Virus record (IMG/VR): IMGVR_UViG_3300045988_053781
Coordinates: 1-37,737 of that record
Origin: a virus
Length of the DNA stretch: 37,737 nt
Strand: one strand, 5' to 3'
The notes beneath the pieces are model-generated. The model worked only from the letters and a program-made list of their open reading frames with translations. It was not told the DNA's origin and made no database searches. Below are positions 10,794 through 36,896 of the stretch, piece after piece. Made by a program: the position numbers and the translations under genes. Positions within the stretch are counted from its first letter, which is position 1; each line of letters opens with the position of its first letter.

Positions 10794-12206
10794 ATGGCAC
10801 AAGATTTTGATTTGACAATGCCAACGGAACGGGCGGAAAAATATCTTGCAAAAATGGCAAAGACATATGACGGAACACTTCCAGAACCGATTTCAAACAT
10901 TGACAAATACTTAAAAATTCTGGCGGAAAATGGTACAGGTGGTAGTTCTGGCGGCGGGATCACTCCGAAAAAGCTGGAAAATACAGATCTGAACACAGTA
11001 ACGGAAACGGGATCTTACTATGCGGATTTCGATCATACTTGCAAAAATGTTCCGAGTAAAGTAGGTAGCTATGGATTTTCTATCATCGTCACAAATGGCG
11101 GCGGCGTTGTGTATCAGCTACTAATGAAAAATACCATCGCCGAAGAAAACCGGCTCTTTATGCGTGTGATCGACAGTGACGGGGAAGTTTATCCGTGGTC
11201 GAACTACATGCAGGAAAGTGACGTAAGCGTTGACAGCGTTCTTTCGGAAACCTCTACCCGTCCCCCGCAAAATGCAATTGTTACAAAACGATTAAATGAA
11301 ATTGAATCAAATTCAGCTAAAAATACCGACTTGATAGCGTACTTGCCAAAAGACGGAACGGCGAAAAAAGCTGATGCTTTAAGCACAGGTCAGATAAAAT
11401 TTGGATATATTTACAATAGCACGAGCACGGCAACCGCTGGAAAGACGTGGGCAAGGGTGGCTTATTGTGTAGTACCAAAAGGCTATACAACGATCACAAT
11501 GGCGATGCTTGTAACAAGCGGAAATTCCGGCGTGGCACTATTTGACATAGATTTCAGAAGTAATGCAAACAATGACGGATTTGAGTATTTCAATGTTAAA
11601 CAAATTATTACAAATTTTCCGGAAAGAGTATCGATAAACGACATAAAAGCTTTTGCGAAAAGCACGAGTGACGGAATACAGTATGAGATATGGTATAACG
11701 TCAAATCTATTTACGGGACACGGCAATTCACTTGCCTAGCAGAGCAACGGTATGGCGGGGCAAATTCCGACGAATGGAAATTTGAAACGCATACCGCCGC
11801 CGACTTTGAAGCAGCTCCACCTACCGACGGCACAGAAGCTACATACAGCAGCTGCGGCGTTGTATCGACTGCCGAAACGCTGACGGATAGCGGTTGGATC
11901 GTTCCCGATCCCATATGCGAAATGAAAGCCACGTCCATAAAATATAAAAAGTATGGAAATATTGTAGAAATAAGTGGATCCATTACATTTTCTAAGGCGT
12001 ATACAGACGCTAAAATATTTCAACTTCCTAAGGATTGCAGACCACCGGCGGAAATAATCATTCTTGGTTCGTCATTCCCTTCTCCATATGATTATTTTCC
12101 GGCAAAAATCAGTGTCGATGGATATATAACATTTCTTGGAAAGACAGAAAATTTCTTTAAAGCAATGACTGATTATGCTATCCATGCCACTTTTTTTGTG
12201 GACTAA
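10794..12206 (+). CDS. Tail fibre / receptor-binding protein 2
   Basis: 470 aa with RBS GGGAGGA. It has a GGSSGGG linker followed by LENTDLNTVTETGSYYA (a knob-domain-like motif). It is the last gene of the structural operon and is followed by a strong terminator. Confidence 0.5.
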   Translation: MAQDFDLTMPTERAEKYLAKMAKTYDGTLPEPISNIDKYLKILAENGTGGSSGGGITPKKLENTDLNTVTETGSYYADFDHTCKNVPSKVGSYGFSIIVTNGGGVVYQLLMKNTIAEENRLFMRVIDSDGEVYPWSNYMQESDVSVDSVLSETSTRPPQNAIVTKRLNEIESNSAKNTDLIAYLPKDGTAKKADALSTGQIKFGYIYNSTSTATAGKTWARVAYCVVPKGYTTITMAMLVTSGNSGVALFDIDFRSNANNDGFEYFNVKQIITNFPERVSINDIKAFAKSTSDGIQYEIWYNVKSIYGTRQFTCLAEQRYGGANSDEWKFETHTAADFEAAPPTDGTEATYSSCGVVSTAETLTDSGWIVPDPICEMKATSIKYKKYGNIVEISGSITFSKAYTDAKIFQLPKDCRPPAEIIILGSSFPSPYDYFPAKISVDGYITFLGKTENFFKAMTDYAIHATFFVD

Positions 12207-12212
12207 ACAAAA

Positions 12213-12255
12213 GGCACCGCAGGGGCTTCCCCACGGTGCCGTTTTTTGTTTTTTG
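12213..12255. terminator. Bidirectional rho-independent terminator between the fibre gene and the convergent cargo gene
   Basis: GGCACCG (12213-12219) pairs with CGGTGCC (12234-12240). It is flanked by an A-run upstream and TTTTTTGTTTTTT downstream. Confidence 0.7.
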
Positions 12256-12271
12256 ATTTAGCTTAGGTGAA

Positions 12272-12559
12272 TCAGTCCCACCAGAACTTCAATTCGTCTT
12301 CGGAGATACCGTACTTTGCAGCCTGTTCCACGATTTCTTTCCGCAGAACCGGATAAACATCTTCGTCAATTTCTTCCGGATCAAAATCTTCGCTATCGAA
12401 GTCAATGCCGTGATCGTCGCACCAGTTCTTAACAACGATCTCACTGTACAGCTCTACCGGTTCGCCGTCCACTTCACAGCTTGCGAGCATGTAAGTGCAA
12501 GCCTGCAACGGCTTAACTCTGGATTCTCCGCTTTTGAATTCTACGTTGATTTTGTTCAT
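12272..12559 (-). CDS. Small, strongly acidic hypothetical protein (cargo gene C)
   Basis: 95 aa from the ATG at 12559 (RBS GGAGGAA 6 nt upstream); the track ORF extends to 12574. By my count there are about 25 D/E versus about 9 K/R, with an acidic block DDHGIDFDSEDFDPEEIDED. Confidence 0.6.
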   Translation of the reverse strand: MNKINVEFKSGESRVKPLQACTYMLASCEVDGEPVELYSEIVVKNWCDDHGIDFDSEDFDPEEIDEDVYPVLRKEIVEQAAKYGISEDELKFWWD

Positions 12560-12618
12560 GATAAATTCCTCCATGTTTTTATTTTTGGGTTTCGGGCTTT
12601 TCCCTAACCTCTGTATCT

Positions 12619-12647
12619 ATTATACACCCATAAGGAACTTTTGTCAA
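12619..12647 (-). promoter_or_regulatory. Consensus sigma-A-type promoter for cargo gene C
   Basis: Minus strand reads TTGACA-AAAGTTCCTTATGGGTG-TATAAT (17-nt spacer). Confidence 0.6.
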
Positions 12648-12705
12648 TAGGTTTTTATAAAAAAATTCCTTCTGTGCGTATATTTGTATGATTGCACAAA
12701 ATAAA

Positions 12706-13047
12706 TCATTCTGATTTGTGCATTTTGTCAATGTTTATCGTGGCATACGCCAACAACATCAGCACGTATTCCGACGGGTTCCGTTCCTCGATGCTCCATT
12801 TCTGGGCTGTGGAATAGGGAATAGAAAAAAAATTGCACATTTGCTTCATGTTTTTATACTGGCTCACGATTTCAGAAAAACCGCCGTTCGCCATGCTATA
12901 AATTTTCCGGAGCATGCTTGCGATTTCGTCCGCATCATCAAGCCCGTTCATCCACTCTTGCCACCCCCTTTTCATGATATATTTTCCCTCAGAATCATAG
13001 TTTTTCGCTTCGGCGTAGAGGGTGCGAAATGTGTTAAAATCGATCAC
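12706..13047 (-). CDS. Hypothetical protein with a C-terminal HTH-like segment (cargo gene B)
   Basis: 113 aa from the GTG at 13047 (RBS AAAGGAAG 7 nt upstream). The longer track ORF would start inside or upstream of its own promoter. The C-terminus FFSIPYSTAQKWSIEERNPSEYVLMLLAY resembles XRE/MqsA-like HTH regulators. Confidence 0.5.
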   Translation of the reverse strand: MIDFNTFRTLYAEAKNYDSEGKYIMKRGWQEWMNGLDDADEIASMLRKIYSMANGGFSEIVSQYKNMKQMCNFFSIPYSTAQKWSIEERNPSEYVLMLLAYATINIDKMHKSE

Positions 13048-13084
13048 AATTAAACTTCCTTTCTGCTTCTTTTGGTATGGGTTT

Positions 13085-13113
13085 AGTATACACCCAATCG
13101 GAACATTTGTCAA
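13085..13113 (-). promoter_or_regulatory. Near-consensus promoter for cargo gene B
   Basis: Minus strand reads TTGACA-AATGTTCCGATTGGGTG-TATACT. It starts 2 nt after the stop of gene A. Confidence 0.55.
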
Positions 13114-13115
13114 GA

Positions 13116-13562
13116 TTAAGCGTGAAAAGTAGCGTTCAGCTTTTCCATGAAATCATCTGTATATCTGCCTACGCACTCGTACACTTTTCCACTTGCAAGG
13201 TCAATATATGCTCTGGAGTAAGCTTCTCTTACACGGAAACTTTCGCGGTTGCTGATCTTTTCGTCGTTCAGCCATGCACCGCAAACATTGCCACTCTTGT
13301 AAAAATCCAGTTCCAGATTCATGAGAGCATCACCAGTTTCACTAAGATACATGCGATCTTTGCCGTACTTAGTCCAGCGGCTTGCACCAGCCTTTTCCAG
13401 CTTGGTGATGTTCCAGCCGTTCAGAATTTCGTCTGCCGGTGCCTTAGCTTCTGCCCATGCGAATTTCATAGCGTAGGACAGCTTAGCGATTCTGTCACCG
13501 CTCAATGTTCTGTAGATTTCCCATGCTCTTCTCATGATGCTTGACAGATTGTAATTTTTCAT
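13116..13562 (-). CDS. Hypothetical protein (cargo gene A)
   Basis: 148 aa from the ATG at 13562 (RBS GGAGGAAACGAAA). The track ORF extension to 13730 runs through the promoter and is unlikely to be real. The N-terminus is MKNYNLSSIMRRAWEIYRTLSGDRIAKLSYAMKFAWAEAKA. Confidence 0.6.
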   Translation of the reverse strand: MKNYNLSSIMRRAWEIYRTLSGDRIAKLSYAMKFAWAEAKAPADEILNGWNITKLEKAGASRWTKYGKDRMYLSETGDALMNLELDFYKSGNVCGAWLNDEKISNRESFRVREAYSRAYIDLASGKVYECVGRYTDDFMEKLNATFHA

Positions 13563-13617
13563 TTTCGTTTCCTCCGATTTTGTGTTTTTCTTAGCGCCTC
13601 TCGTGCTTTCTGTAATC

Positions 13618-13646
13618 ATTATACACCATTCGGGAACATTTGTCAA
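13618..13646 (-). promoter_or_regulatory. Consensus promoter for cargo gene A
   Basis: Minus strand reads TTGACA-AATGTTCCCGAATGGTG-TATAAT (17-nt spacer). Confidence 0.6.
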
Positions 13647-13756
13647 GCGTTTTATGACAATGGGAACACTTTTGTATACATGCACAAAATACAATCTTAT
13701 GATTTGTACAATATTCACAATACAGAGCAAATCGCTCAGAATGCCATTAAAATCGA

Positions 13757-13825: not shown

Positions 13826-15358
13826 CTAGACACCTCTACAGCGAAATATGCCAGCGGGGAGAGGAACATAGAGCAATAGCAAGGGCGGAACAAGCTTAAT
13901 TTTGGATATAGTCGGATAGAGGGAGGACTTGACGACAGTATCCGAAAAGGATTTTTCCAAAATTATCCGTTCTGGGGGATCCACGTTGCCATTCGTCAAG
14001 TTTATGGCAATGACCACGTGGTCACGGTACAGCGTCACGCTGTGGATCACGGCGTTAAAAAATTTCTTTCGGTCGTCGGCACGGTCAAGGGCTTTCGTGA
14101 TCCAGCAGAAAAACTTTACGAAATCCTGCTGGGTGAGTTTCGGCGGCTCTGGGGGTGCTTGTTCCAACTGCTGCTTTTGCTGCTCTAGGTCTGTCAGCCG
14201 TGCCTGCAATGCTTCTGACTGCGGGCAAGCTATGAGGGCATTCACAGCACCCTGAATCTGTTTTTCGAGTGCTTGTATCTGCTTGCTGCGGTCTGGCTCG
14301 GGGCTGTCCTCGGCTAGATACATGCGATACAGACAATCGGCAAAGTCTGTCACATGCTCCGGCGTAAAGTAATCTGCTAGTGCTGCTATCACGGTGGACT
14401 CCACTTTTTCGCTGCTGATCGTCAAGCTGTGATCGTGCGGGAGCGTTTTGCAAGATTTTGCTATGCACGTGTAGTAAAAATATTTTCGCTGTACGGACGT
14501 ACCAACGACTTTTCGCCCGCATATGCCGCACTGTAGCAGCCCTGTGAGGGCGAACACGTGACCCGTGCGGTTTATACGGGCGTTGTGTGCAGAGTGCTTC
14601 AAACGCTCCTGTGCAGCGTCATAGAGGCTTTGTGGGACGATCTGCGGGCAAGTTTCAGGTTCGGCTATATCCGTGACATAGTACGTGCCCGTGTACTTGG
14701 GATTGTGCAGTATGTCGCTGACGCTGTAGCGTCTGAACAGGTTGCCCTGCCGCGTTCTGTGTCCGGCGGCGTTCAGCTTGTCTGCGATGCTTTGCAAAGT
14801 CGCTCCCCCTACGTACTGCGTGAAGATCTGCCGGACGTTGCTCGCTTCGACTTCGTCCACCGCAAGCCGTTTCTCGGTCTTGTGGTATCCATACGGGGCA
14901 CGGGTGAAGGTATTGCCCTTGATGATCGTTTCACGAATCCCCCGCTTGCACTTGCGGGAAAGTTCACGGGAAAAGTATTCGTCCATGGATTCCAGAAGAC
15001 CTTCGATCAGGATCCCCTCAGGGCTGTCCGTAATGCGTTCGGTGGCGGACAAGACCTTCACGCCACAGCGTTTTAGTTTTTGCTTATATACGGCACTGTC
15101 ATAGCGATTGCGGGCGAATCGGTCAAGCTTGTACACAAGCACGTACTCCCAGCAGCCGCGTTTGCTGTCGGAGATCATCTGCTGGAACTGGTCGCGGTGG
15201 TCGGTGGACGTTCCAGAGGTCGCACGGTCGATGTATTCAGCAACGATGTGGATCCCCTCAGCTTTTGCGAATTCCGCACACACGCGGCGTTGCCCTTCGA
15301 TTGACTGTTCCGTTTGCCGGTCGCTTGAATATCTGCCGTAAAAAACGGCTCGTTTCAT
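13826..15358 (-). CDS. Large serine recombinase (phage integrase)
   Basis: 510 aa. It has an N-terminal resolvase-type catalytic domain (AVFYGRYSSDRQ...IEGQ), a recombinase domain, a Cys cluster (CGICGRKVVG...YYYTC), and a coiled-coil Q/E-rich segment. RBS is AAGGGAG. Confidence 0.9.
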   Translation of the reverse strand: MKRAVFYGRYSSDRQTEQSIEGQRRVCAEFAKAEGIHIVAEYIDRATSGTSTDHRDQFQQMISDSKRGCWEYVLVYKLDRFARNRYDSAVYKQKLKRCGVKVLSATERITDSPEGILIEGLLESMDEYFSRELSRKCKRGIRETIIKGNTFTRAPYGYHKTEKRLAVDEVEASNVRQIFTQYVGGATLQSIADKLNAAGHRTRQGNLFRRYSVSDILHNPKYTGTYYVTDIAEPETCPQIVPQSLYDAAQERLKHSAHNARINRTGHVFALTGLLQCGICGRKVVGTSVQRKYFYYTCIAKSCKTLPHDHSLTISSEKVESTVIAALADYFTPEHVTDFADCLYRMYLAEDSPEPDRSKQIQALEKQIQGAVNALIACPQSEALQARLTDLEQQKQQLEQAPPEPPKLTQQDFVKFFCWITKALDRADDRKKFFNAVIHSVTLYRDHVVIAINLTNGNVDPPERIILEKSFSDTVVKSSLYPTISKIKLVPPLLLLYVPLPAGIFRCRGV

Positions 15359-15772: not shown

Positions 15773-16282
15773 CTACCTTCTATTGTAAATAAAGTTTTGA
15801 AATTGTATGAATAATTCATGTTCGAGAGGGTGTCTGATGAATTGATCATACTCCAGAAGCCAAAACAGCCGCTTGGAACGACGTTCGGCGGCAGCCTTGG
15901 ACACCCCGCAAATACCGGAGATTGTGACCGGATCGAGGGCATTTGCACCCAATAAAACGCATGCCGGCATGAGTACACCGGCAGCGAATCGGTCTGCCGC
16001 TGGCTCACAGTCGCCTAGTAAATAATGCCCTAACTCGTGTAAGATCGTGAAGCGTTTCTGGGTGTCGGTGTCCTTTGGATTCACGACAATTTGAACTTTT
16101 CCCGACTGCCTACGGATCAATTTTTCGGCTTCTCCACCCGTCAGAAATGCGTCTGTCAAACGGCACTCTATACCATATTTAGACGCTATCTGGACGGGCT
16201 TCACGGGCAGCTGTACAACCTTACAATCGAGTAAGCATTTCCAGCTGGCACGTAACGCAAGCTTGTAAATTTCACAATGCAT
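15773..16282 (-). CDS. immA: ImmA/IrrE-family zinc metallopeptidase (anti-repressor protease)
   Basis: HEXXH motif (ILHELGHYLL). It lies immediately downstream of the HTH repressor on the same strand. The ATG at 16282 with RBS GAGGTGA is preferred over the GTG at 16291. Confidence 0.8.
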   Translation of the reverse strand: MHCEIYKLALRASWKCLLDCKVVQLPVKPVQIASKYGIECRLTDAFLTGGEAEKLIRRQSGKVQIVVNPKDTDTQKRFTILHELGHYLLGDCEPAADRFAAGVLMPACVLLGANALDPVTISGICGVSKAAAERRSKRLFWLLEYDQFIRHPLEHELFIQFQNFIYNRR

Positions 16283-16285
16283 ATA

Positions 16286-16321
16286 ACTCACCTCTACGGT
16301 TATTATACCATAGAGGTGAGT
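16286..16321 (-). promoter_or_regulatory. Intercistronic hairpin that sequesters the immA ribosome-binding site
   Basis: Perfect 11-bp inverted repeat on the minus strand: ACTCACCTCTA (16321-16311) and TAGAGGTGAGT (16296-16286). The 3' arm contains the GAGGTGA RBS. The 14-nt loop carries TGGTATAAT. Confidence 0.45.
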
Positions 16322-16326
16322 TTTTA

Positions 16327-17046
16327 TTATGGATTGTCGTCTACAAGCGGGGCATTATCTGCCTTTTCGCCCTCTGCTACTGGGTAGCTTTTTACTTGGG
16401 TTCCGCTGCCGTTTTTCGCGGATTCCTTGACGGTTTCCCACTTGGTCAACGTGATTCCTTGCCGATCGGCTTCTTCTTGAATTGCCCGACGTAAGAAGTC
16501 AAGCACTGCCTGACGCTGTGCGTTCGGTAACTCCAGATACCGTCTGATTAGTATATCTTCCAGTTCTTCAACACCGGAATTCTTTACTACTGTGCTCAGA
16601 TCGTCACGTTCCGGAGCAGGTTCACACCCTAATAAATAATCCGTTGTAACTCCGAAATGATGTGATATTTTCGAAATCATTTCTATACTTAGTTCTCGTT
16701 TTCCGTATTCGTAGCTTGCATATGCGCCTTTTGGGATTCCGAGAAATTCCGCGGTTTTTGACATGGATTCACCTGATTTTTCACGCAGTAATTTCAATGT
16801 TTCATACCAATGTACTGTGTTGCCTTCTTGTAGATCTTCCATTGGATTCACGTCCGATCTACCTAACAAATAATCAGTTGTCACGCCAAAAAGATCTGCA
16901 AGTGCTACAATCGTATCCCCGTTTGGCTCCCGTAAACCGCATTCGTAATTTTTATATGTGGACTGTCCAACTCCGAGAGAATTAGCGATTTCTTTTTGTG
17001 TTTTTCCACTCTTTTTTCGTGCGGCTTTTAGATTTTCGGTATTCAT
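16327..17046 (-). CDS. immR: Phage repressor with two tandem XRE-type HTH domains (ImmR/CI-like)
   Basis: It has two HTH_3-like units (KTQKEIANSLGVGQSTYKNYECGLREP...TTDYLLG and MSKTAEFLGIPKGAYASYEYGKRELS...TTDYLLG). It is divergent from the early operon and followed by immA. Confidence 0.85.
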   Translation of the reverse strand: MNTENLKAARKKSGKTQKEIANSLGVGQSTYKNYECGLREPNGDTIVALADLFGVTTDYLLGRSDVNPMEDLQEGNTVHWYETLKLLREKSGESMSKTAEFLGIPKGAYASYEYGKRELSIEMISKISHHFGVTTDYLLGCEPAPERDDLSTVVKNSGVEELEDILIRRYLELPNAQRQAVLDFLRRAIQEEADRQGITLTKWETVKESAKNGSGTQVKSYPVAEGEKADNAPLVDDNP

Positions 17047-17069: not shown

Positions 17070-17098
17070 ATTATAGCGCGAAATGAAGATTTTGTCAA
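17070..17098 (-). promoter_or_regulatory. Repressor (lysogenic) promoter
   Basis: Minus strand reads TTGACA-AAATCTTCATTTCGCGC-TATAAT (17-nt spacer), about 24 nt upstream of the immR ATG. Confidence 0.6.
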
Positions 17099-17182
17099 TA
17101 CAAAATTTGATTGATGCTACGTTTTGTGTGTGTTGCACAAAATAGTAGACTTTTTTTTGTATACTTTTTTGCAAAAAAAGGC

Positions 17183-17211
17183 TTGACATAGTCTTTATAC
17201 TATGCTATAAT
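17183..17211 (+). promoter_or_regulatory. Early (lytic) promoter
   Basis: TTGACA (17183-17188), 17 nt, TATAAT (17206-17211). It is divergent from the repressor promoter and preceded by the palindrome TTTTTTGCAAAAAA (17165-17178). Confidence 0.65.
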
Positions 17212-30770: not shown

Positions 30771-30945
30771 ATTGCTGGGGCTGCTTACAGTAAAAAGCAT
30801 TGTTACAATTTTGCTGACAATCGTGTTTTGTGTGTTGTCGTGGTTTGGCAGCATTGAGGGTGACAAATTTCTAACGATTTTTACAACCGTCATTGCGTTC
30901 TACTTTGGAACGCAAACTGAAAAGAACAGGAGTGAAACGAAATGA
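30760..30945 (+). CDS. Holin (two predicted TM segments)
   Basis: 61 aa from the ATG at 30760 (RBS GAGGAAGAG). TM segments are LLGLLTVKSIVTILLTIVFCVLSWF and FLTIFTTVIAFYFG, with a charged C-terminus. Its stop overlaps the endolysin start. Confidence 0.6.
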   Translation: MKNKLLGLLTVKSIVTILLTIVFCVLSWFGSIEGDKFLTIFTTVIAFYFGTQTEKNRSETK

Positions 30946-31709
30946 GTGTACAAGGTATTGATGTGTCAAGACATAACACGATCACAGACTTTCGAAAAGT
31001 CAAGGCATCTGGAATTGATTTTGTAATTATCCGTGCCGGTTATGGTCGGGAAATCTCCCAGAAAGATCCAAAGTTTGAAACCAACTATAAAAACGCAAAA
31101 GCGGCTGGGCTGAACGTGGGTGCATACTGGTACAGCTACGCACAGAGCGTGGAAGAAGCAAAGATTGAAGCAAAGGTTTGCTTACAGGCAATCAAGGGAA
31201 AGAAATTCGAATACCCGATTTATTTCGATCTGGAAGAAAATACCCAGCTGTCACGCGGCTCTGCGTTTTGCTCTGCACTGGTCAAGGCGTTCTGCGGCGA
31301 ACTCGAAAAGGCAGGATATTTTGCAGGGTTGTATATGTCAAGATACTATCTGCAAACCGTGATTTCAATCGACGTTGCGAAACGCTATGCGGTTTGGGTT
31401 GCAGAGTATAACGGTAAGTGTAACTACAGCGGCAACTATGGCATCTGGCAAAACAGTTCTACATGGCGTGTAAACGGGATCTCTGGAAACGTAGATCACG
31501 ATTATGCTTATATCGATTATCCCTCAATTATCAAGAAAAAGGGATTGAATGGATATAAGGCAGCGACTGCGAAAAAATCCATTGATACAATCGCCCGTGA
31601 AGTGATTGCGGGCAAGTGGGGCAATGGCAACGAACGGAAAAAGAAGTTGACGGCTGCGGGCTATGATTTTGCAACAGTTCAGAAGCGTGTAAACCAGTTA
31701 ATTCCGTAA
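30942..31709 (+). CDS. Endolysin: GH25 muramidase plus a CW_7 (Cpl-7-like) cell-wall-binding repeat
   Basis: GIDVSRHNTITDFRKVKASGIDFVIIRAGYG and GAYWYSYA are GH25 motifs. The C-terminal IAREVIAGKWGNGNERKKKLTAAGYDFATVQKRVNQL is a CW_7 motif. Confidence 0.85.
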   Translation: MSVQGIDVSRHNTITDFRKVKASGIDFVIIRAGYGREISQKDPKFETNYKNAKAAGLNVGAYWYSYAQSVEEAKIEAKVCLQAIKGKKFEYPIYFDLEENTQLSRGSAFCSALVKAFCGELEKAGYFAGLYMSRYYLQTVISIDVAKRYAVWVAEYNGKCNYSGNYGIWQNSSTWRVNGISGNVDHDYAYIDYPSIIKKKGLNGYKAATAKKSIDTIAREVIAGKWGNGNERKKKLTAAGYDFATVQKRVNQLIP

Positions 31710-33653: not shown

Positions 33654-33974
33654 ATGGACAGAAAAGAAAAGTTGGAGAAACTCTGTGATGAACTAGACGA
33701 CGGAGCCAAAACAGCAACGTCACAACTGGTTGATGAAATTGTATTTCTGGAATCCAGATTGACGGAATTGAAGAAGTACCCGTTTATCGCAGTGAATCCA
33801 AAGAATCCAGTGCAGCAGCGAACAACTCACGCCGCAAAACAGTACAAGGAACTATTGCAGCAATATAACAATTGCATCAAGATCATGCTGGGAGTTTTGG
33901 GAAAGATTGAAACCGCAGAGGTTTCCCCTCTCCGACAGTACTTGAACCAGCTAAGAGGAAATGCAGAAGCATGA
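33654..33974 (+). CDS. terS: Terminase small subunit, P27 family
   Basis: 106 aa from the ATG at 33654 (RBS GAGGTG). It is a coiled-coil protein (LVDEIVFLESRLTELKK...AAKQYKELLQQYNNCIKIM) directly before terL, with an ATGA overlap. Confidence 0.65.
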   Translation: MDRKEKLEKLCDELDDGAKTATSQLVDEIVFLESRLTELKKYPFIAVNPKNPVQQRTTHAAKQYKELLQQYNNCIKIMLGVLGKIETAEVSPLRQYLNQLRGNAEA

Positions 33975-35659
33975 GTACATGGCTATTGCAATACCGTGAA
34001 GCGATTCGCAGCGGTGAAATTATCGCCGGAATCGAGTTAGTCACGGAACTGGATAATCTGATTGCTGACATGGACGATCCACGATACATTTACGACACCA
34101 GCGACGCGGAACTTCGAATTGACTTCATGGAACACTGCATCAGGCTCACGAAATCCCCGTTTTACGGGAAACCCATGAAATTGATGTTGTGGCAAAAAGC
34201 ATTCATTGAAGTGGTCTACAGTTTCAAACTTGCCGATAGAACATACATAAACGCTTACGGTCAAGAAAAACACGTTGACCGATTCCAAAAAATTGTGCTC
34301 CTGATTGGCAGAAAGAATGCGAAAAGTGAAACGTGCTCCGGCTTGGAATTGACTGAAAGCATCGTTGGAAACGAAGGTGCAGATCTGGTGTGCTCCAGTA
34401 ATGACGATGTACAAGCTTCGATTTTGTATGATGCGATTGACACGATGCGTTTAATGATCGATCCACAGCAAGAGGATACGCGAAAGAATCAGCGGTTTAT
34501 CAAAATTCTGGCGACGAACTCAAAGATTTTCAAGTTGTCTGACCGCACCCGAAACAAGGAGGGGCGGAACATTGATTTTGCTGTAATTGACGAAGTGCAC
34601 GAAATGAAAGACAACGTAATTTTGAAATCAATCGAACAGTCCCAAAGTTTGAAAGATAATCCGAAACTGATCATCATTACAACGGAGGGATTTGTAAACG
34701 ACGGAGCACTTGATGAAATCTTGCGGGACTGCCGGCGAATTATCAACGGTGAAGATGATGGAGTGGCGGCAGAAAAAACGCTACCTTGGTTATACACACA
34801 AGATAGTGAACAGGAAATTTGGTCTGACGAAAAAACATGGCAGAAAAGCAATCCGTCACTTGGAATCATTAAGAAATGGGATTATCTGCGAACCCAGATT
34901 GACCTTGGACGGAAAAATAAAAGCGATCGAATGTTCGTGCTTTCGAAAGATTTCAATTTCAAGCAAAATAACGCTCGTGCATGGCTCAACGTCGAGGATT
35001 ACAAATATTCCGCCGTTTATGATCTGGAAGATTTCCGAAAATCTCTATGCTTGGGTGCCGTCGATCTCTCTGAAACCACAGACATGACCAGTGCAAAAGT
35101 GCTGCTGATGCGGAAAGACGATAAAACGAAATACATATACAGCCACTATTGGATCCCAGAAAGTAAACTGGAAAATTCAGATGATAAAGAAGCCGGAGCA
35201 AAATATAAAGAATGGGCGAAACAGGGGCTTTTGACCATTTGCGACGGAAACGACATCGATTTGACGCAAGTCGCAGACTGGTTTTTTACCTTGTATAAAG
35301 ACTATGGGCTGCGGCTCTATAAATGTGGTTACGACGTGAAATTTTCCAAAGAGTTTCTAAAGCGTATGGACGAATACGGTTTTGACACCGAAATAGTGAT
35401 TCAGAACAAGGCAACGCTGTCCAACGCAATGAAACTATGTGAAGCGGATTTGATAGCACGGCTGGTGAACTACAACGAAAATGAAATTGACGCGTGGTGT
35501 CTGGGAAATGCTGCAATGGAAATGGATAATCTGGGAAATGTACAGGCGGTGAAAATTGCCGGTCAGCCGTCAAAACGAATCGACGGTGCCGTTACTCTGA
35601 TTATCGCTTACGAGATGTACAGAAGATACAGAAGCGAATTCACAAAAGCGTTGAAATGA
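33971..35659 (+). CDS. terL: Terminase large subunit
   Basis: 562 aa. Walker A-like LIGRKNAKSE and Walker B AVIDEVHE, with a C-terminal nuclease half. Position is canonical. Confidence 0.9.
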   Translation: MSTWLLQYREAIRSGEIIAGIELVTELDNLIADMDDPRYIYDTSDAELRIDFMEHCIRLTKSPFYGKPMKLMLWQKAFIEVVYSFKLADRTYINAYGQEKHVDRFQKIVLLIGRKNAKSETCSGLELTESIVGNEGADLVCSSNDDVQASILYDAIDTMRLMIDPQQEDTRKNQRFIKILATNSKIFKLSDRTRNKEGRNIDFAVIDEVHEMKDNVILKSIEQSQSLKDNPKLIIITTEGFVNDGALDEILRDCRRIINGEDDGVAAEKTLPWLYTQDSEQEIWSDEKTWQKSNPSLGIIKKWDYLRTQIDLGRKNKSDRMFVLSKDFNFKQNNARAWLNVEDYKYSAVYDLEDFRKSLCLGAVDLSETTDMTSAKVLLMRKDDKTKYIYSHYWIPESKLENSDDKEAGAKYKEWAKQGLLTICDGNDIDLTQVADWFFTLYKDYGLRLYKCGYDVKFSKEFLKRMDEYGFDTEIVIQNKATLSNAMKLCEADLIARLVNYNENEIDAWCLGNAAMEMDNLGNVQAVKIAGQPSKRIDGAVTLIIAYEMYRRYRSEFTKALK

Positions 35660-35669
35660 GGTGGTAACA

Positions 35670-36896
35670 ATGGGTTTATTTGATTATTTACGGCAGCGAA
35701 TTGACGAAAAGAAACAAAAAATGCAGTTTGCTCGAATGATGAACGGGCAAACACCGATATTTTCCCAGTTTGGAAATAATATCTATGCTTCGGACGTTGT
35801 TCAGCAGGCGGTTTCTTGCATCGTTCAGGAAATTTCAAAACTGAATCCAACACATGTGAAACTGATTGACGGTGTGGACAGTATCCCACAAGACAGCGAC
35901 ATTCAGAACGTTTTGGACGCTCCGAATGAAGTCATGTCAACTTCGGACATGCTGGAAAAAATCACGTGGAACTTGTTCTTGAACTATAATAGTTTCATTT
36001 TGCCGACGTGGAACGGCGGACGCTTAACCGGCTTGTACCCTTTGCAGCCGGCGAACGTGGATTTCTTCGAAGATCCTTCCGGAAAGCTGCTTGTGAAATT
36101 TCATTTCAATAACGGTTATGATTCGGGTATGATTAAATATTCTGATGTTATCCACATTCGCAAAAACTTTTCCGTCAATGACTACATGGGCGGCAATTCA
36201 CAAGGGCAGCCGGACAACGGAGCACTTTTAAAAACGCTGGAACTGAATGACGTTTTACTACAAGGCGTTGGTAAAGCACTAAAAAGTAGTTTTGCGGTGA
36301 ATGGTATCGTCAAGTATAACACACTAGTTGACGACGGCGAAACAGAAGCAGCACTGCGAACGCTCGAAGCGAAATTGAAAAATTCTGAAAATGGTTTTCT
36401 CCCGCTGGATCTGAAAACGGAGTTTATCCCTTTCCAAAAACAGATTGAAATGGTGGACGCTGACACGCTGAAATTTATAGATGAAAAAATTCTCCGTCAA
36501 TTCGGCGTTCCGCTGTGCATTCTCACCGGCGATTATACAAAAGAACAGTATGAAGCATTTTACCAGAAAACGCTTGAACCAATCATAATCAAGTTGGGGC
36601 AGTGCTTCACAAAGGGCATTTTTTCCACGCGTGCAAATTTGGGCTACGGAAACAAGATTGTCTTTTACGAAAAAGAACTGATCTTTATGACCATGACGCA
36701 GAAGCTTGAATTGGCTCGTATCTTGGGCGATCGTGGAGCAATCTACGAAAATGAAATCCGCGTTATGTTTGGATTGCAGCCGCTGCCGGAACTGAACGGA
36801 AAGCGAAAGCAATCTCTGAACTACGTCGATGTGGAAATTGCAAATGACTACCAACTTGGAAGCAATTCGGGAGGTGCTGACAATGCAGAAAGCTAA
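35670..36896 (+). CDS. Portal protein (HK97 family)
   Basis: About 408 aa from the ATG at 35670 (RBS GAGGTGG). It lies between terL and the prohead protease. Confidence 0.85.
   Translation: MGLFDYLRQRIDEKKQKMQFARMMNGQTPIFSQFGNNIYASDVVQQAVSCIVQEISKLNPTHVKLIDGVDSIPQDSDIQNVLDAPNEVMSTSDMLEKITWNLFLNYNSFILPTWNGGRLTGLYPLQPANVDFFEDPSGKLLVKFHFNNGYDSGMIKYSDVIHIRKNFSVNDYMGGNSQGQPDNGALLKTLELNDVLLQGVGKALKSSFAVNGIVKYNTLVDDGETEAALRTLEAKLKNSENGFLPLDLKTEFIPFQKQIEMVDADTLKFIDEKILRQFGVPLCILTGDYTKEQYEAFYQKTLEPIIIKLGQCFTKGIFSTRANLGYGNKIVFYEKELIFMTMTQKLELARILGDRGAIYENEIRVMFGLQPLPELNGKRKQSLNYVDVEIANDYQLGSNSGGADNAES

Follow-up and report, generated by a model that had tools for sequence, protein, structure and literature searches.

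The DNA analysed here, referred to as the window, is the whole 37.7-kb stretch (37,737 nucleotides) of the IMG/VR virus record IMGVR_UViG_3300045988_053781, which resembles a complete phage genome and is best read as that of a temperate siphovirus with a Ruminococcus-like gut bacterium as its host. Our subject is an island of three small genes, A, B and C, on the minus strand of this genome (Table 1). As a preliminary description of the window had proposed, each gene lies behind a near-identical consensus promoter: the open reading frames (ORFs) are preceded by P1, P2 and P3, which agree with TTGACA-17-TATAAT at 12, 11 and 12 positions out of 12, respectively, the measure by which all promoters are scored below. 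The spacers are conserved as well as the hexamers, and for the resulting 29-nt consensus, no match is expected by chance: with up to three mismatches allowed, P1, P2 and P3 are its sole matches in the window, and none of 100 shuffled sequences contained a single one. The string GGTGTATAMT occurs four times in the window against 0.03 expected, and all three spacers keep the pattern GTTCC-N4/5-GGTG, with a second GTTCCC copy at P1, 30 bp upstream of the spacer copy. Transcription is predicted to start near 13611 from P1, near 13078 from P2 and near 12612 from P3, with leaders of about 49 nt for P1 and 53 nt for P3. P2 begins 3 nt past the stop codon of A. P1 is kept in nine of the related loci examined (L001-L004 and L016-L020).

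The island has one intrinsic terminator, which follows C, is common to the three transcription units and is kept in sister phages and in inoviruses; its hairpin (12240-12213) has a folding energy of -27.3 kcal/mol (z = -5.4). In agreement with the preliminary description, a terminator scan found no site in either of the gaps that separate A, B and C; its weak 5-pair stems lie ahead of P1 (13737..13725) and within C (12401..12388). The island therefore consists of three transcription units, each with a near-consensus sigma-A promoter and all with a single common terminator. Since there is no internal terminator, the transcripts from P1, P2 and P3 would be nested and co-terminal, with expression rising from A through B to C. 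The extent of the trio needed one correction. It had been drawn to end at 13730, which is the TTG of a longer, mechanically called ORF; homologues of A begin at the methionine of MK(N/K)Y, so A starts at 13562.

The proteins themselves agree well with the first description. The 95-residue product of C is strongly acidic, with an isoelectric point (pI) of 4.1, 25 aspartate and glutamate residues against nine lysines and arginines, and a net charge of -16, and the 113-residue product of B has an XRE-type helix-turn-helix (HTH) at its C-terminus. No hydrophobic segment is present in A, B or C (the 19-residue hydropathy maximum is at most 0.63), and all three are soluble proteins. In G+C content the island does not stand out (42.3% against 44.1%). 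That the three belong to no characterised family was confirmed in searches of Pfam, NCBIfam, PADLOC and PDB sequences and, for B and C, by the fold searches that had been suggested as a check and that returned no significant match. All three stay below the curated thresholds of Pfam, NCBIfam and PADLOC; in the last, A and B had no match and C a single one (E 0.026, 11 bits). Enzymatic or toxin domains were not found with Pfam and NCBIfam, and PDB profile searches gave nothing for A or C. Among deposited phages, a DNA search with the island yielded two 59-nt fragments and nothing else, and tblastn with B and A yielded hypothetical proteins only, such as Streptococcus phage PH15 ORF58 and Javan273_0003.

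An integrated copy of the phage on a 43.7-kb IMG/VR contig (loci L002, L016, L018 and L059) reveals the position of the island in a lysogen. Homology to the window ends at 13924 at one junction and at 13914 at the other, within the non-conserved 3′ tail of the int ORF, where the PHROG integrase match has already stopped (residue 459 of 510). Because the phage attachment site, attP, falls in this tail, the lysogen has the island and int at opposite prophage ends. The earlier placement of the trio between the tail fibres and the integrase, next to int, thus holds for the circular map and fails for the lysogen. The accompanying suggestion of accessory cargo at a prophage end is upheld, as P1 lies about 270 bp from the junction and the island just inside one end of the prophage. 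Since the endolysin gene precedes the small terminase genes and does not follow the tail genes, the island directly abuts the last tail-fibre gene. A sister lineage (L001, L003 and L004) has the same island beside a different lysis module, and in L003 some 140 bp separate it from a junction with a host gene, that of a broken ATP-binding cassette (ABC) transporter. The two flanks of the integrated copy (L002 3200-3420 and L059 1-446) are pieces of a terminase large-subunit gene (Pfam TerL_nuclease; L059 by eye), and beyond them lie portal and ClpP genes of another prophage-like element, so that here a prophage sits inside a prophage gene.

Promoters and their upstream elements

Duplication of a promoter module had been offered as one reason for the similarity of the three promoters, and the upstream sequences support it: P1 and P3 share a 40-nt upstream element as well as the promoter. 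The two elements are 78% identical to each other, both contain a TACAAA-bearing motif, and that of P3 overlaps the final codons of B, while P2 is without one. Both are in fact copies of a generic element, TTTTGTGCA-N4-TACAAA, which matched more than 120 viral contigs and sits 25-50 nt upstream of the -35 box on many unrelated gut phage contigs. Among 79 occurrences on viral contigs (loci L067-L145), 38 are followed within 70 nt by a promoter scoring at least 11/12. The promoters behind this element carry mutually unrelated spacer operators, and the genes that they drive include cro-like HTH genes, replication genes and small acidic ORFs.

A degenerate copy of the same element (17135-17162) lies in the window's own lysogeny switch (17070-17211), between perfect divergent promoters at 17098 (-) and 17183 (+) that adjoin the repressor/ImmA gene pair. 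The -10 box of the rightward switch promoter is TG-extended, and the spacer of this promoter contains a dyad, ATAGT-N6-ACTAT, that is absent from P1-P3; its leader and that of P1 have GAAAGCACGA in common. We infer that P1 and P3 are early-type promoters outside CI operator control; because they share the element of cro-like early genes and lack the ATAGT-N6-ACTAT dyad, they should fire on DNA entry.

Other identities for the upstream inverted repeat were considered, and none was supported. As a terminator it would form a weak RNA hairpin (-8.9 kcal/mol, z -1.3) without a U tract, and it is not attP, since the junctions map elsewhere, to 13914-13924 in the window and to a point some 140 bp upstream of P1 in the sister lineage. 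A solitary CRISPR repeat finds no support in the 120 viral-contig matches outside its own contig, which are all single and in promoter contexts, and a lineage-specific operator is contradicted by its being identical in phages whose spacer palindromes all differ. The leader of P3 (12557-12649, minus strand) drew a match to the Rfam SAM-III (SMK box) model at 22.7 bits against a gathering threshold of 45, which we judged to be chance.

The B family and its neighbours in other phages

The proposed survey of related prophages showed that B is kept while A and C vary by locus; indeed, B is the sole component conserved across all related loci. The survey covered 50 loci, drawn from metagenomes, IMG/VR and GTDB genomes, with hosts that include Ruminococcus callidus, Oscillospiraceae, Lachnospiraceae, Dorea, Anaerobutyricum, Roseburia, Streptococcus and Enterococcus. 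A profile search with B recovered 327 representative clusters, mostly stand-alone proteins of 105-125 residues from Bacillota prophages, with the N-terminal signature ERGWQ[ED]WM (ERGWQEWM in B itself). B matches phrog_25567, which has no annotated function, over nearly its full length (E 8.1e-35; residues 1-104 align with positions 2-104 of the 115 in the profile).

The C-terminal third of B is the XRE-type HTH, with PYSTAQKW as its recognition helix. Through residues 67-102 the B profile matches proteins made of HTH_3 repeats, a comparison with an HTH_3 protein by hhalign reached 89% probability, and there are weak resemblances to the P2 C repressor (E 0.069) and to MqsA-type HTH proteins. 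The structure model of B is all-helical, with a predicted local distance difference test (pLDDT) score of 87, and its fold search gave weak matches only, to an Xre antitoxin (3omt, E 3.3) and again to P2 C (E 5.8). B had no Pfam match to HTH_3 (PF01381), and distant members of its family reach 18-19 bits against a cut-off of 23. By these comparisons B is a divergent relative of HTH_3 and not a scored Pfam member. We regard it as a candidate autoregulator and as the conserved anchor of the island.

In many loci B lies just past holin, endolysin or tail genes, a placement taken from the size and order of the ORFs and, where checked, from their annotation; only in L003 and L009 was a prophage-host junction mapped beside it. 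Its gene is convergent with the lysis or tail genes in the window, L009 and Javan273, and co-directional with them in L050 of Streptococcus oralis, S. gordonii phage PH15 and L055 of Dorea sp. D27. The cassettes are nearly always preceded by a promoter scoring 11/12 or 12/12, and 14 of the 30 listed promoters have a dyad of at least 5/6 pairs at a fixed position in the spacer, with nine distinct arm sequences. For example, distant lineages carry CACGCA-A-TGCGTG, TGCTCA-A-TGAGCA, CACACA-A-TGTGTG, CACGTA-T-TACGTG or TACCCA-W-TGGGTR. In five loci (L046, L054, L056, L062 and L119) a second operator copy stands just upstream of the -35 box. In L027, L048 and L050 one promoter is repeated ahead of successive units, and the multi-promoter layout of the window is thus a habit of the B family. 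In R. callidus, where B stands alone, its gene retains a 3′ remnant of the A gene upstream and adjoins four tandem promoter modules of about 140 bp, TTGACATTTTTCGCGTAGTGTGATATAAT (ATCC 27760; L041 3245-4810). Three of these four copies are followed by a listed hydrophobic peptide of 44-48 residues with a lysine-rich tail, resembling a type I toxin.

Recognition helices and operators were also collated manually. Helices of the form Y[STG]TAQKW pair with ACC(N)A / T(N)GGT, and those of the form xRT[LV]xxW with ACGCA, ACACA or ACTCA; PIRT[LV]EDW pairs with the operator CCACGCAWTGCGTGG in both L058 and L062, despite their differing N-terminal domains. This suggests that recognition helix and operator covary in outline.

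The genes beside B in other phages are suggestive of counter-defence. A solo type I-C Cas7/Csd2 gene overlaps the stop codon of B in four Lachnospiraceae lineages that have diverged from one another (L046, L047, L049 and L052), and these proteins match PF05107 at E 1e-60 to 1e-67. No other cas gene was recognised near B at these loci, where beyond the ORFs just downstream of cas7 no scan with cas models was made, and a limited literature search found no description of a phage-borne solo Cas7 beside B. Such a solo Cas7 may be a decoy-subunit anti-CRISPR. Similarly, a gene with CapR- and AP2-like features follows B in L050 and L055 and follows the B-adjoining Cas7 in L047 of Roseburia. The three encoded proteins combine a CxCxC...CxC zinc motif with an AP2-like C-terminus and match PHROG DNA-binding modules of homing endonucleases (E 1e-17 to 1e-31), and the L047 protein has weak Pfam matches to AP2 (E 0.0024) and CapR (E 0.041). 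Proteins that combine CapR and AP2, termed CasPR, have been shown experimentally to act as anti-CRISPRs by silencing cas genes and are abundant in acr loci of Bacillota prophages, one of them, CasPRIB1, acting during lysogeny (bioRxiv 10.64898/2026.02.23.707548), and AP2 genes mark acr loci (PMC10732046). Finally, in most of the distant loci an ORF of 55-143 codons, with a product pI of 4.1-4.6, lies directly upstream of B.

We also observed acidic proteins of 113-139 residues and pI 4.1-4.3 in L050 (5613-5987), L055 (5632-5973) and L108 (139 residues) that seem by eye to form one family. Their sole match is phrog_18666, which has no annotated function, and the L050 and L055 members have the motifs G(T/S)(C/S)..(I/L) and YP.(I/L)YLV in common. 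In both Streptococcus (L050) and Dorea (L055) the ORF is the first gene behind the operator-bearing promoter, and in L108, on a viral contig, it lies downstream of its promoter.

Exchange of A and C among phages

Both A and C are mobile cargo: each turns up in other phages independently of the other. Protein A has 51 homologous clusters and reaches 11.7 bits (E 0.4) against PF07410 (Phage_Gp111), short of the gathering cut-off of 27.1, while many homologues at 50-85% identity have a precomputed PF07410 match. On this evidence A is a distant relative at the edge of PF07410, a family without annotated function. It is missing from L005, L009 and L011. Elsewhere homologues of A occur solo, either antisense to lysis genes (L063 and L064) or between replication and packaging genes (L065), and each lies behind a consensus promoter with a palindromic spacer.

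Exchange of C is more striking. Its homologues occur at 60-87% identity on circular, inovirus-like contigs of about 7.5 kb, and a 415-bp unit comprising the -10 box, leader, ORF and terminator is 89.9% identical to the corresponding sequence of L012 and 74.9% identical to that of L014. The inovirus contributes its own -35 box and operator region, which contains the palindrome TTTGTAGCTACAAA. On these two contigs, whose host is a Gram-positive gut bacterium, two CATGTTTACAAAA repeats lie upstream of the C promoter, and they carry a 55-nt terminal repeat, Zot, a rolling-circle Rep, 35-residue coat-like ORFs and a NikA-like gene. In five other loci (L001, L003, L004, L016 and L017) the place of C is taken by an acidic ORF of 168 codons, C′, that is unrelated to it (BLASTP of C against C′, E 0.096). 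The break points of homology lie 7 nt ahead of the ATG (12566) and 19 nt past the stop codon (12253), and since C is swapped for C′ between conserved flanks, the third position of the island is a slot. C′ is likewise without a functional match in Pfam, NCBIfam, PADLOC and PHROGs. The structure model of C (pLDDT 93) comprises a three-stranded sheet and two helices, for which Foldseek found no significant relative (best E 0.11 in PDB and 0.024 in BFVD).

A cassette of L062 (4001-6422) was also observed, encoding a homologue of A, a 176-residue ORF, a 334-residue fusion protein and an HTH_3 protein with a B-like C-terminus, behind a promoter bearing two CCACGCAWTGCGTGG copies. The 334-residue protein consists of a C′-like domain (46% identity) fused to an HTH_26 domain.

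Table 1. Positions of the features discussed, in the window unless another locus is named
Feature	Position	Strand	Remarks
Gene A	13562..13116	-	ATG start; 148 aa; pI 8.8; Shine-Dalgarno GGAGG
Gene B	13047..12706	-	GTG start; 113 aa; pI 5.4; Shine-Dalgarno AGGAAG
Gene C	12559..12272	-	ATG start; 95 aa; pI 4.1; Shine-Dalgarno GGAGG
Promoter P1	13646-13618	-	TTGACAAATGTTCCCGAATGGTGTATAAT; 12/12; 17-nt spacer
Promoter P2	13113-13085	-	TTGACAAATGTTCCGATTGGGTGTATACT; 11/12
Promoter P3	12647-12619	-	TTGACAAAAGTTCCTTATGGGTGTATAAT; 12/12
P1 upstream element, 40 nt	13710-13671	-	imperfect inverted repeat GTACAA-N16-TTGTGC, then ATGTATACAAA
P3 upstream element, 40 nt	12722-12683	-	perfect inverted repeat GCACAA-N16-TTGTGC, then AATCATACAAA
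Intrinsic terminator	12206..12247	-	12 pairs, 9 of them G-C; T tract
Mobile C unit	12625..12211	-	-10 box, leader, ORF, terminator
Last tail-fibre gene	10794-12206	+	one neighbour of the island
Large serine recombinase (int)	15358..13826	-	510 aa; other neighbour of the island
Inferred attP crossover	13914..13924	.	within the non-conserved 3′ tail of the int ORF
ImmA protease	16291..15773	-	lysogeny switch
XRE repressor	17046..16327	-	lysogeny switch
Endolysin	30942-31709		immediately 5′ of the small terminase genes
Terminase large subunit	33971-35659		assigned by ORF size and order
Portal	35661-36896		assigned by ORF size and order; PF04860 in the portal gene of related contig L002
Solo Cas7	L049 6326-7177		Anaerobutyricum hallii DSM 3353; TIGR02589 at 244 bits (cut-off 182)
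Solo Cas7	L047 879-1754		Roseburia
Solo Cas7	L052 3575-4426		
Solo Cas7	L046 6350-7234		
Solo Cas7	L030 1076-1924		L049 lineage, assigned by sequence
Solo Cas7	L040 4326-5174		L049 lineage, assigned by sequence

Function of the island and comparison with known systems

Taken together, the data lead us to favour, with moderate confidence, a reading of the trio as a counter-defence island of modular build, resembling the loci of anti-CRISPR (Acr) and anti-CRISPR-associated (Aca) proteins and with B as its putative autoregulator. Several lines point this way. B anchors variable cassettes beside lysis or tail genes, in some cases at a mapped junction, and palindromes occupy the promoter spacers of many of its relatives while B itself carries an HTH. 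Cas7, CapR/AP2 and small acidic ORFs stand beside B elsewhere, an argument of guilt by association. The C unit is exchanged between a tailed phage and inoviruses, C and C′ replace each other without homology, and the fusion of a C′-like domain to an HTH in L062 recalls Acr-Aca fusions. The early-type promoter module and the solubility of A, B and C fit as well. Under this counter-defence reading, P1 and P3 would fire when the DNA enters the cell and probably also in the lysogen, and the nested transcripts would yield less A than B and less B than C, as would suit C, were this very acidic protein a stoichiometric inhibitor. Dimers of B would bind the GTTCC-N4/5-GGTG spacer abutting the -10 box and, like Aca proteins, throttle P1-P3 as B accumulates. 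C, C′ and perhaps A would bind and block a host immunity protein, of CRISPR-Cas or restriction, possibly by mimicry of nucleic acid.

A number of observations weigh against this interpretation, and several concern the operators. The preliminary description had spoken of operator-flanked promoters and of a common factor that binds the spacers. The first is not borne out, as no dyad is visible at P1-P3, only CC..GG and GGTG. The second draws support from the clean palindromes at the same position in distant relatives and is weakened by the window's own spacers, which are not symmetric: at the family position they form 2-3 of 6 pairs by manual count, and a free dyad search gave at best 3-5 of 6 at other positions, with P(shuffle) of 0.2 to 1.0. 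Of the relatives' palindromes they retain only a CC..GG core and GGTG, the half nearest the -10 box. In L042, where the promoter resembles those of the window, a perfect TTCCAAATTGGAA lies just ahead of it, a hint that GTTCC may be half of another dyad. Binding of B at the window spacers is accordingly an extrapolation from its relatives. Moreover, comparable palindromes stand beside other HTH proteins in L063, L064 and L119, so the operator-in-spacer design is general and B is not proven as the binder, and we know of no protein that binds the generic upstream element. As for the neighbours, the window island has neither Cas7 nor a CasPR-like gene, and its link to those genes therefore runs through B only; the CasPR-like assignment itself is drawn from PHROG homing-endonuclease modules and weak Pfam matches. 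Finally, A, B and C showed no homology to known Acr, Ard or Aca proteins in general libraries, a dedicated anti-defence library not having been searched.

How far do the same data serve other explanations? Cargo for lysogenic conversion or defence, expressed from the prophage and acting through cytoplasmic exclusion, abortive infection or altered host physiology, would account for the site at a prophage end, antisense to the structural operon, and for the strong promoters and terminator of the island's own. P1-P3 are without the dyad of the early promoter and may be on in lysogens, and the lysogenic activity of CasPRIB1 shows that lysogen expression and anti-defence are compatible. We nevertheless consider this explanation rather unlikely: PADLOC gave nothing convincing, its one match being at E 0.026, no enzymatic or toxin domains were found, the neighbours of B elsewhere, Cas7 and CasPR-like genes, point to counter-defence, and C is also carried by small inoviruses with scant coding room. 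There are no membrane segments either, and a membrane protein for the superinfection exclusion envisaged at first is likewise unlikely on that ground.

Regulatory early genes of the phage, with B as an anti-repressor-like or timing regulator of its own programme and A and C as small proteins for taking over the host, are suggested by the promoter module common to cro-like genes, by the HTH of B and by GAAAGCACGA in the leaders of P1 and the rightward early promoter. Such genes would hardly be as dispensable and exchangeable as A and C, given that C is replaced by C′, that A is missing from three loci and that B stands alone in R. callidus; the island also lies outside the switch and replication modules, and members of the B family sit beside lysis or tail genes and, in L003 and L009, a mapped prophage-host junction. 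We regard this alternative as decidedly improbable. XRE-HTH antitoxins autoregulate via palindromes in their promoters, and the weak fold and sequence matches of B to an Xre antitoxin (3omt) and to MqsA-type HTH proteins could likewise cast it as antitoxin and autorepressor of an addiction-like module with a neighbour as toxin. However, no neighbour resembles a toxin family, the partners of B differ from locus to locus, and there is one promoter per gene instead of a tight bicistron, which together make a toxin-antitoxin module very improbable.

A wider extension of the counter-defence reading can be put forward only tentatively. The B family might be new and widespread, an Aca-like protein around which the anti-defence islands of Bacillota prophages are anchored and which represses copies of a consensus promoter via a spacer operator, with C, C′ and A as new inhibitor families, C as the first inhibitor common to tailed and filamentous phages of one host, and the solo Cas7 proteins of Lachnospiraceae as decoy anti-CRISPRs. 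Anti-defence islands with an HTH regulator are known as a kind; new here are the B family, the modular promoter-per-gene layout with its swappable slot, and the unit common to inoviruses. The anti-defence genes of gut Firmicutes phages go mostly unrecognised for want of homology, and if the proposal is true, the anchor gene and promoter design would provide a handle for mining the prophage islands of Ruminococcus, Lachnospiraceae, Streptococcus and Enterococcus. Candidate inhibitors from our survey would be C, C′, A, the small acidic ORFs upstream of B and the solo Cas7 genes. That a siphovirus and inoviruses, which probably share one host, carry C units 90% identical to each other represents an exchange of accessory genes across unrelated virus realms, and the slot architecture, in which promoter, leader and terminator are conserved around a variable ORF, suggests a mechanism of diversification. 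Should the island not serve anti-defence, it would still illustrate cleanly how modular cargo can be built with several promoters, though its wider interest would be limited.

Among known systems, the named families nearest to the island are PF07410, which homologues of A carry while the window A itself stays below the cut-off, and phrog_25567, which B matches over its full length. Like morons, the C unit is a module of promoter, leader, ORF and terminator that moves between genomes and is inserted among operons, and homologues of A are inserted antisense; unlike them, the island chains three modules with near-identical promoters and a common regulator gene, and its G+C content does not deviate. 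C and C′ resemble the DNA mimics Ocr, ArdA and AcrIIA4 in being small, strongly acidic and predicted to be expressed from a strong, probably early promoter. C is small, soluble and strongly negative, like proteins of the ArdA/Ocr type, without sequence or fold similarity to these in Pfam, NCBIfam or PDB (no PDB fold at E <0.1). The CasPR systems (Sanderson et al., bioRxiv 10.64898/2026.02.23.707548) are found in prophage loci of the same kind, and CapR/AP2-like genes follow members of the B family or a B-adjoining Cas7. The window island differs in having no CapR or AP2 and in encoding an XRE-HTH protein as B, and its link to CasPR is one of neighbourhood.

The closest comparison remains that with acr-aca loci, which the preliminary description had already drawn. 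It is strengthened by the Cas7, CapR/AP2 and acidic ORF neighbours of the B family, and it is qualified by gene order and by the promoter copy ahead of each gene, where the classical locus is a single operon. In the island the HTH gene occupies the central position, with the acidic gene downstream of it. B carries in addition a conserved N-terminal domain (ERGWQEWM) that has no known relative, the window operators are asymmetric, and the searches returned no homologue among named Acr or Aca proteins. As in acr-aca loci, including those of Listeria and Clostridioides prophages, small, often very acidic proteins without a family adjoin an HTH gene in a mobile element, B lying here between the uncharacterised A and C. 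Furthermore, in both cases the site is a prophage end, past the lysis or tail genes, a very strong promoter bears inverted repeats (here in the relatives of B), AP2/CapR genes occur in the same loci (again those of B relatives), and cargo turns over rapidly around a conserved HTH anchor.

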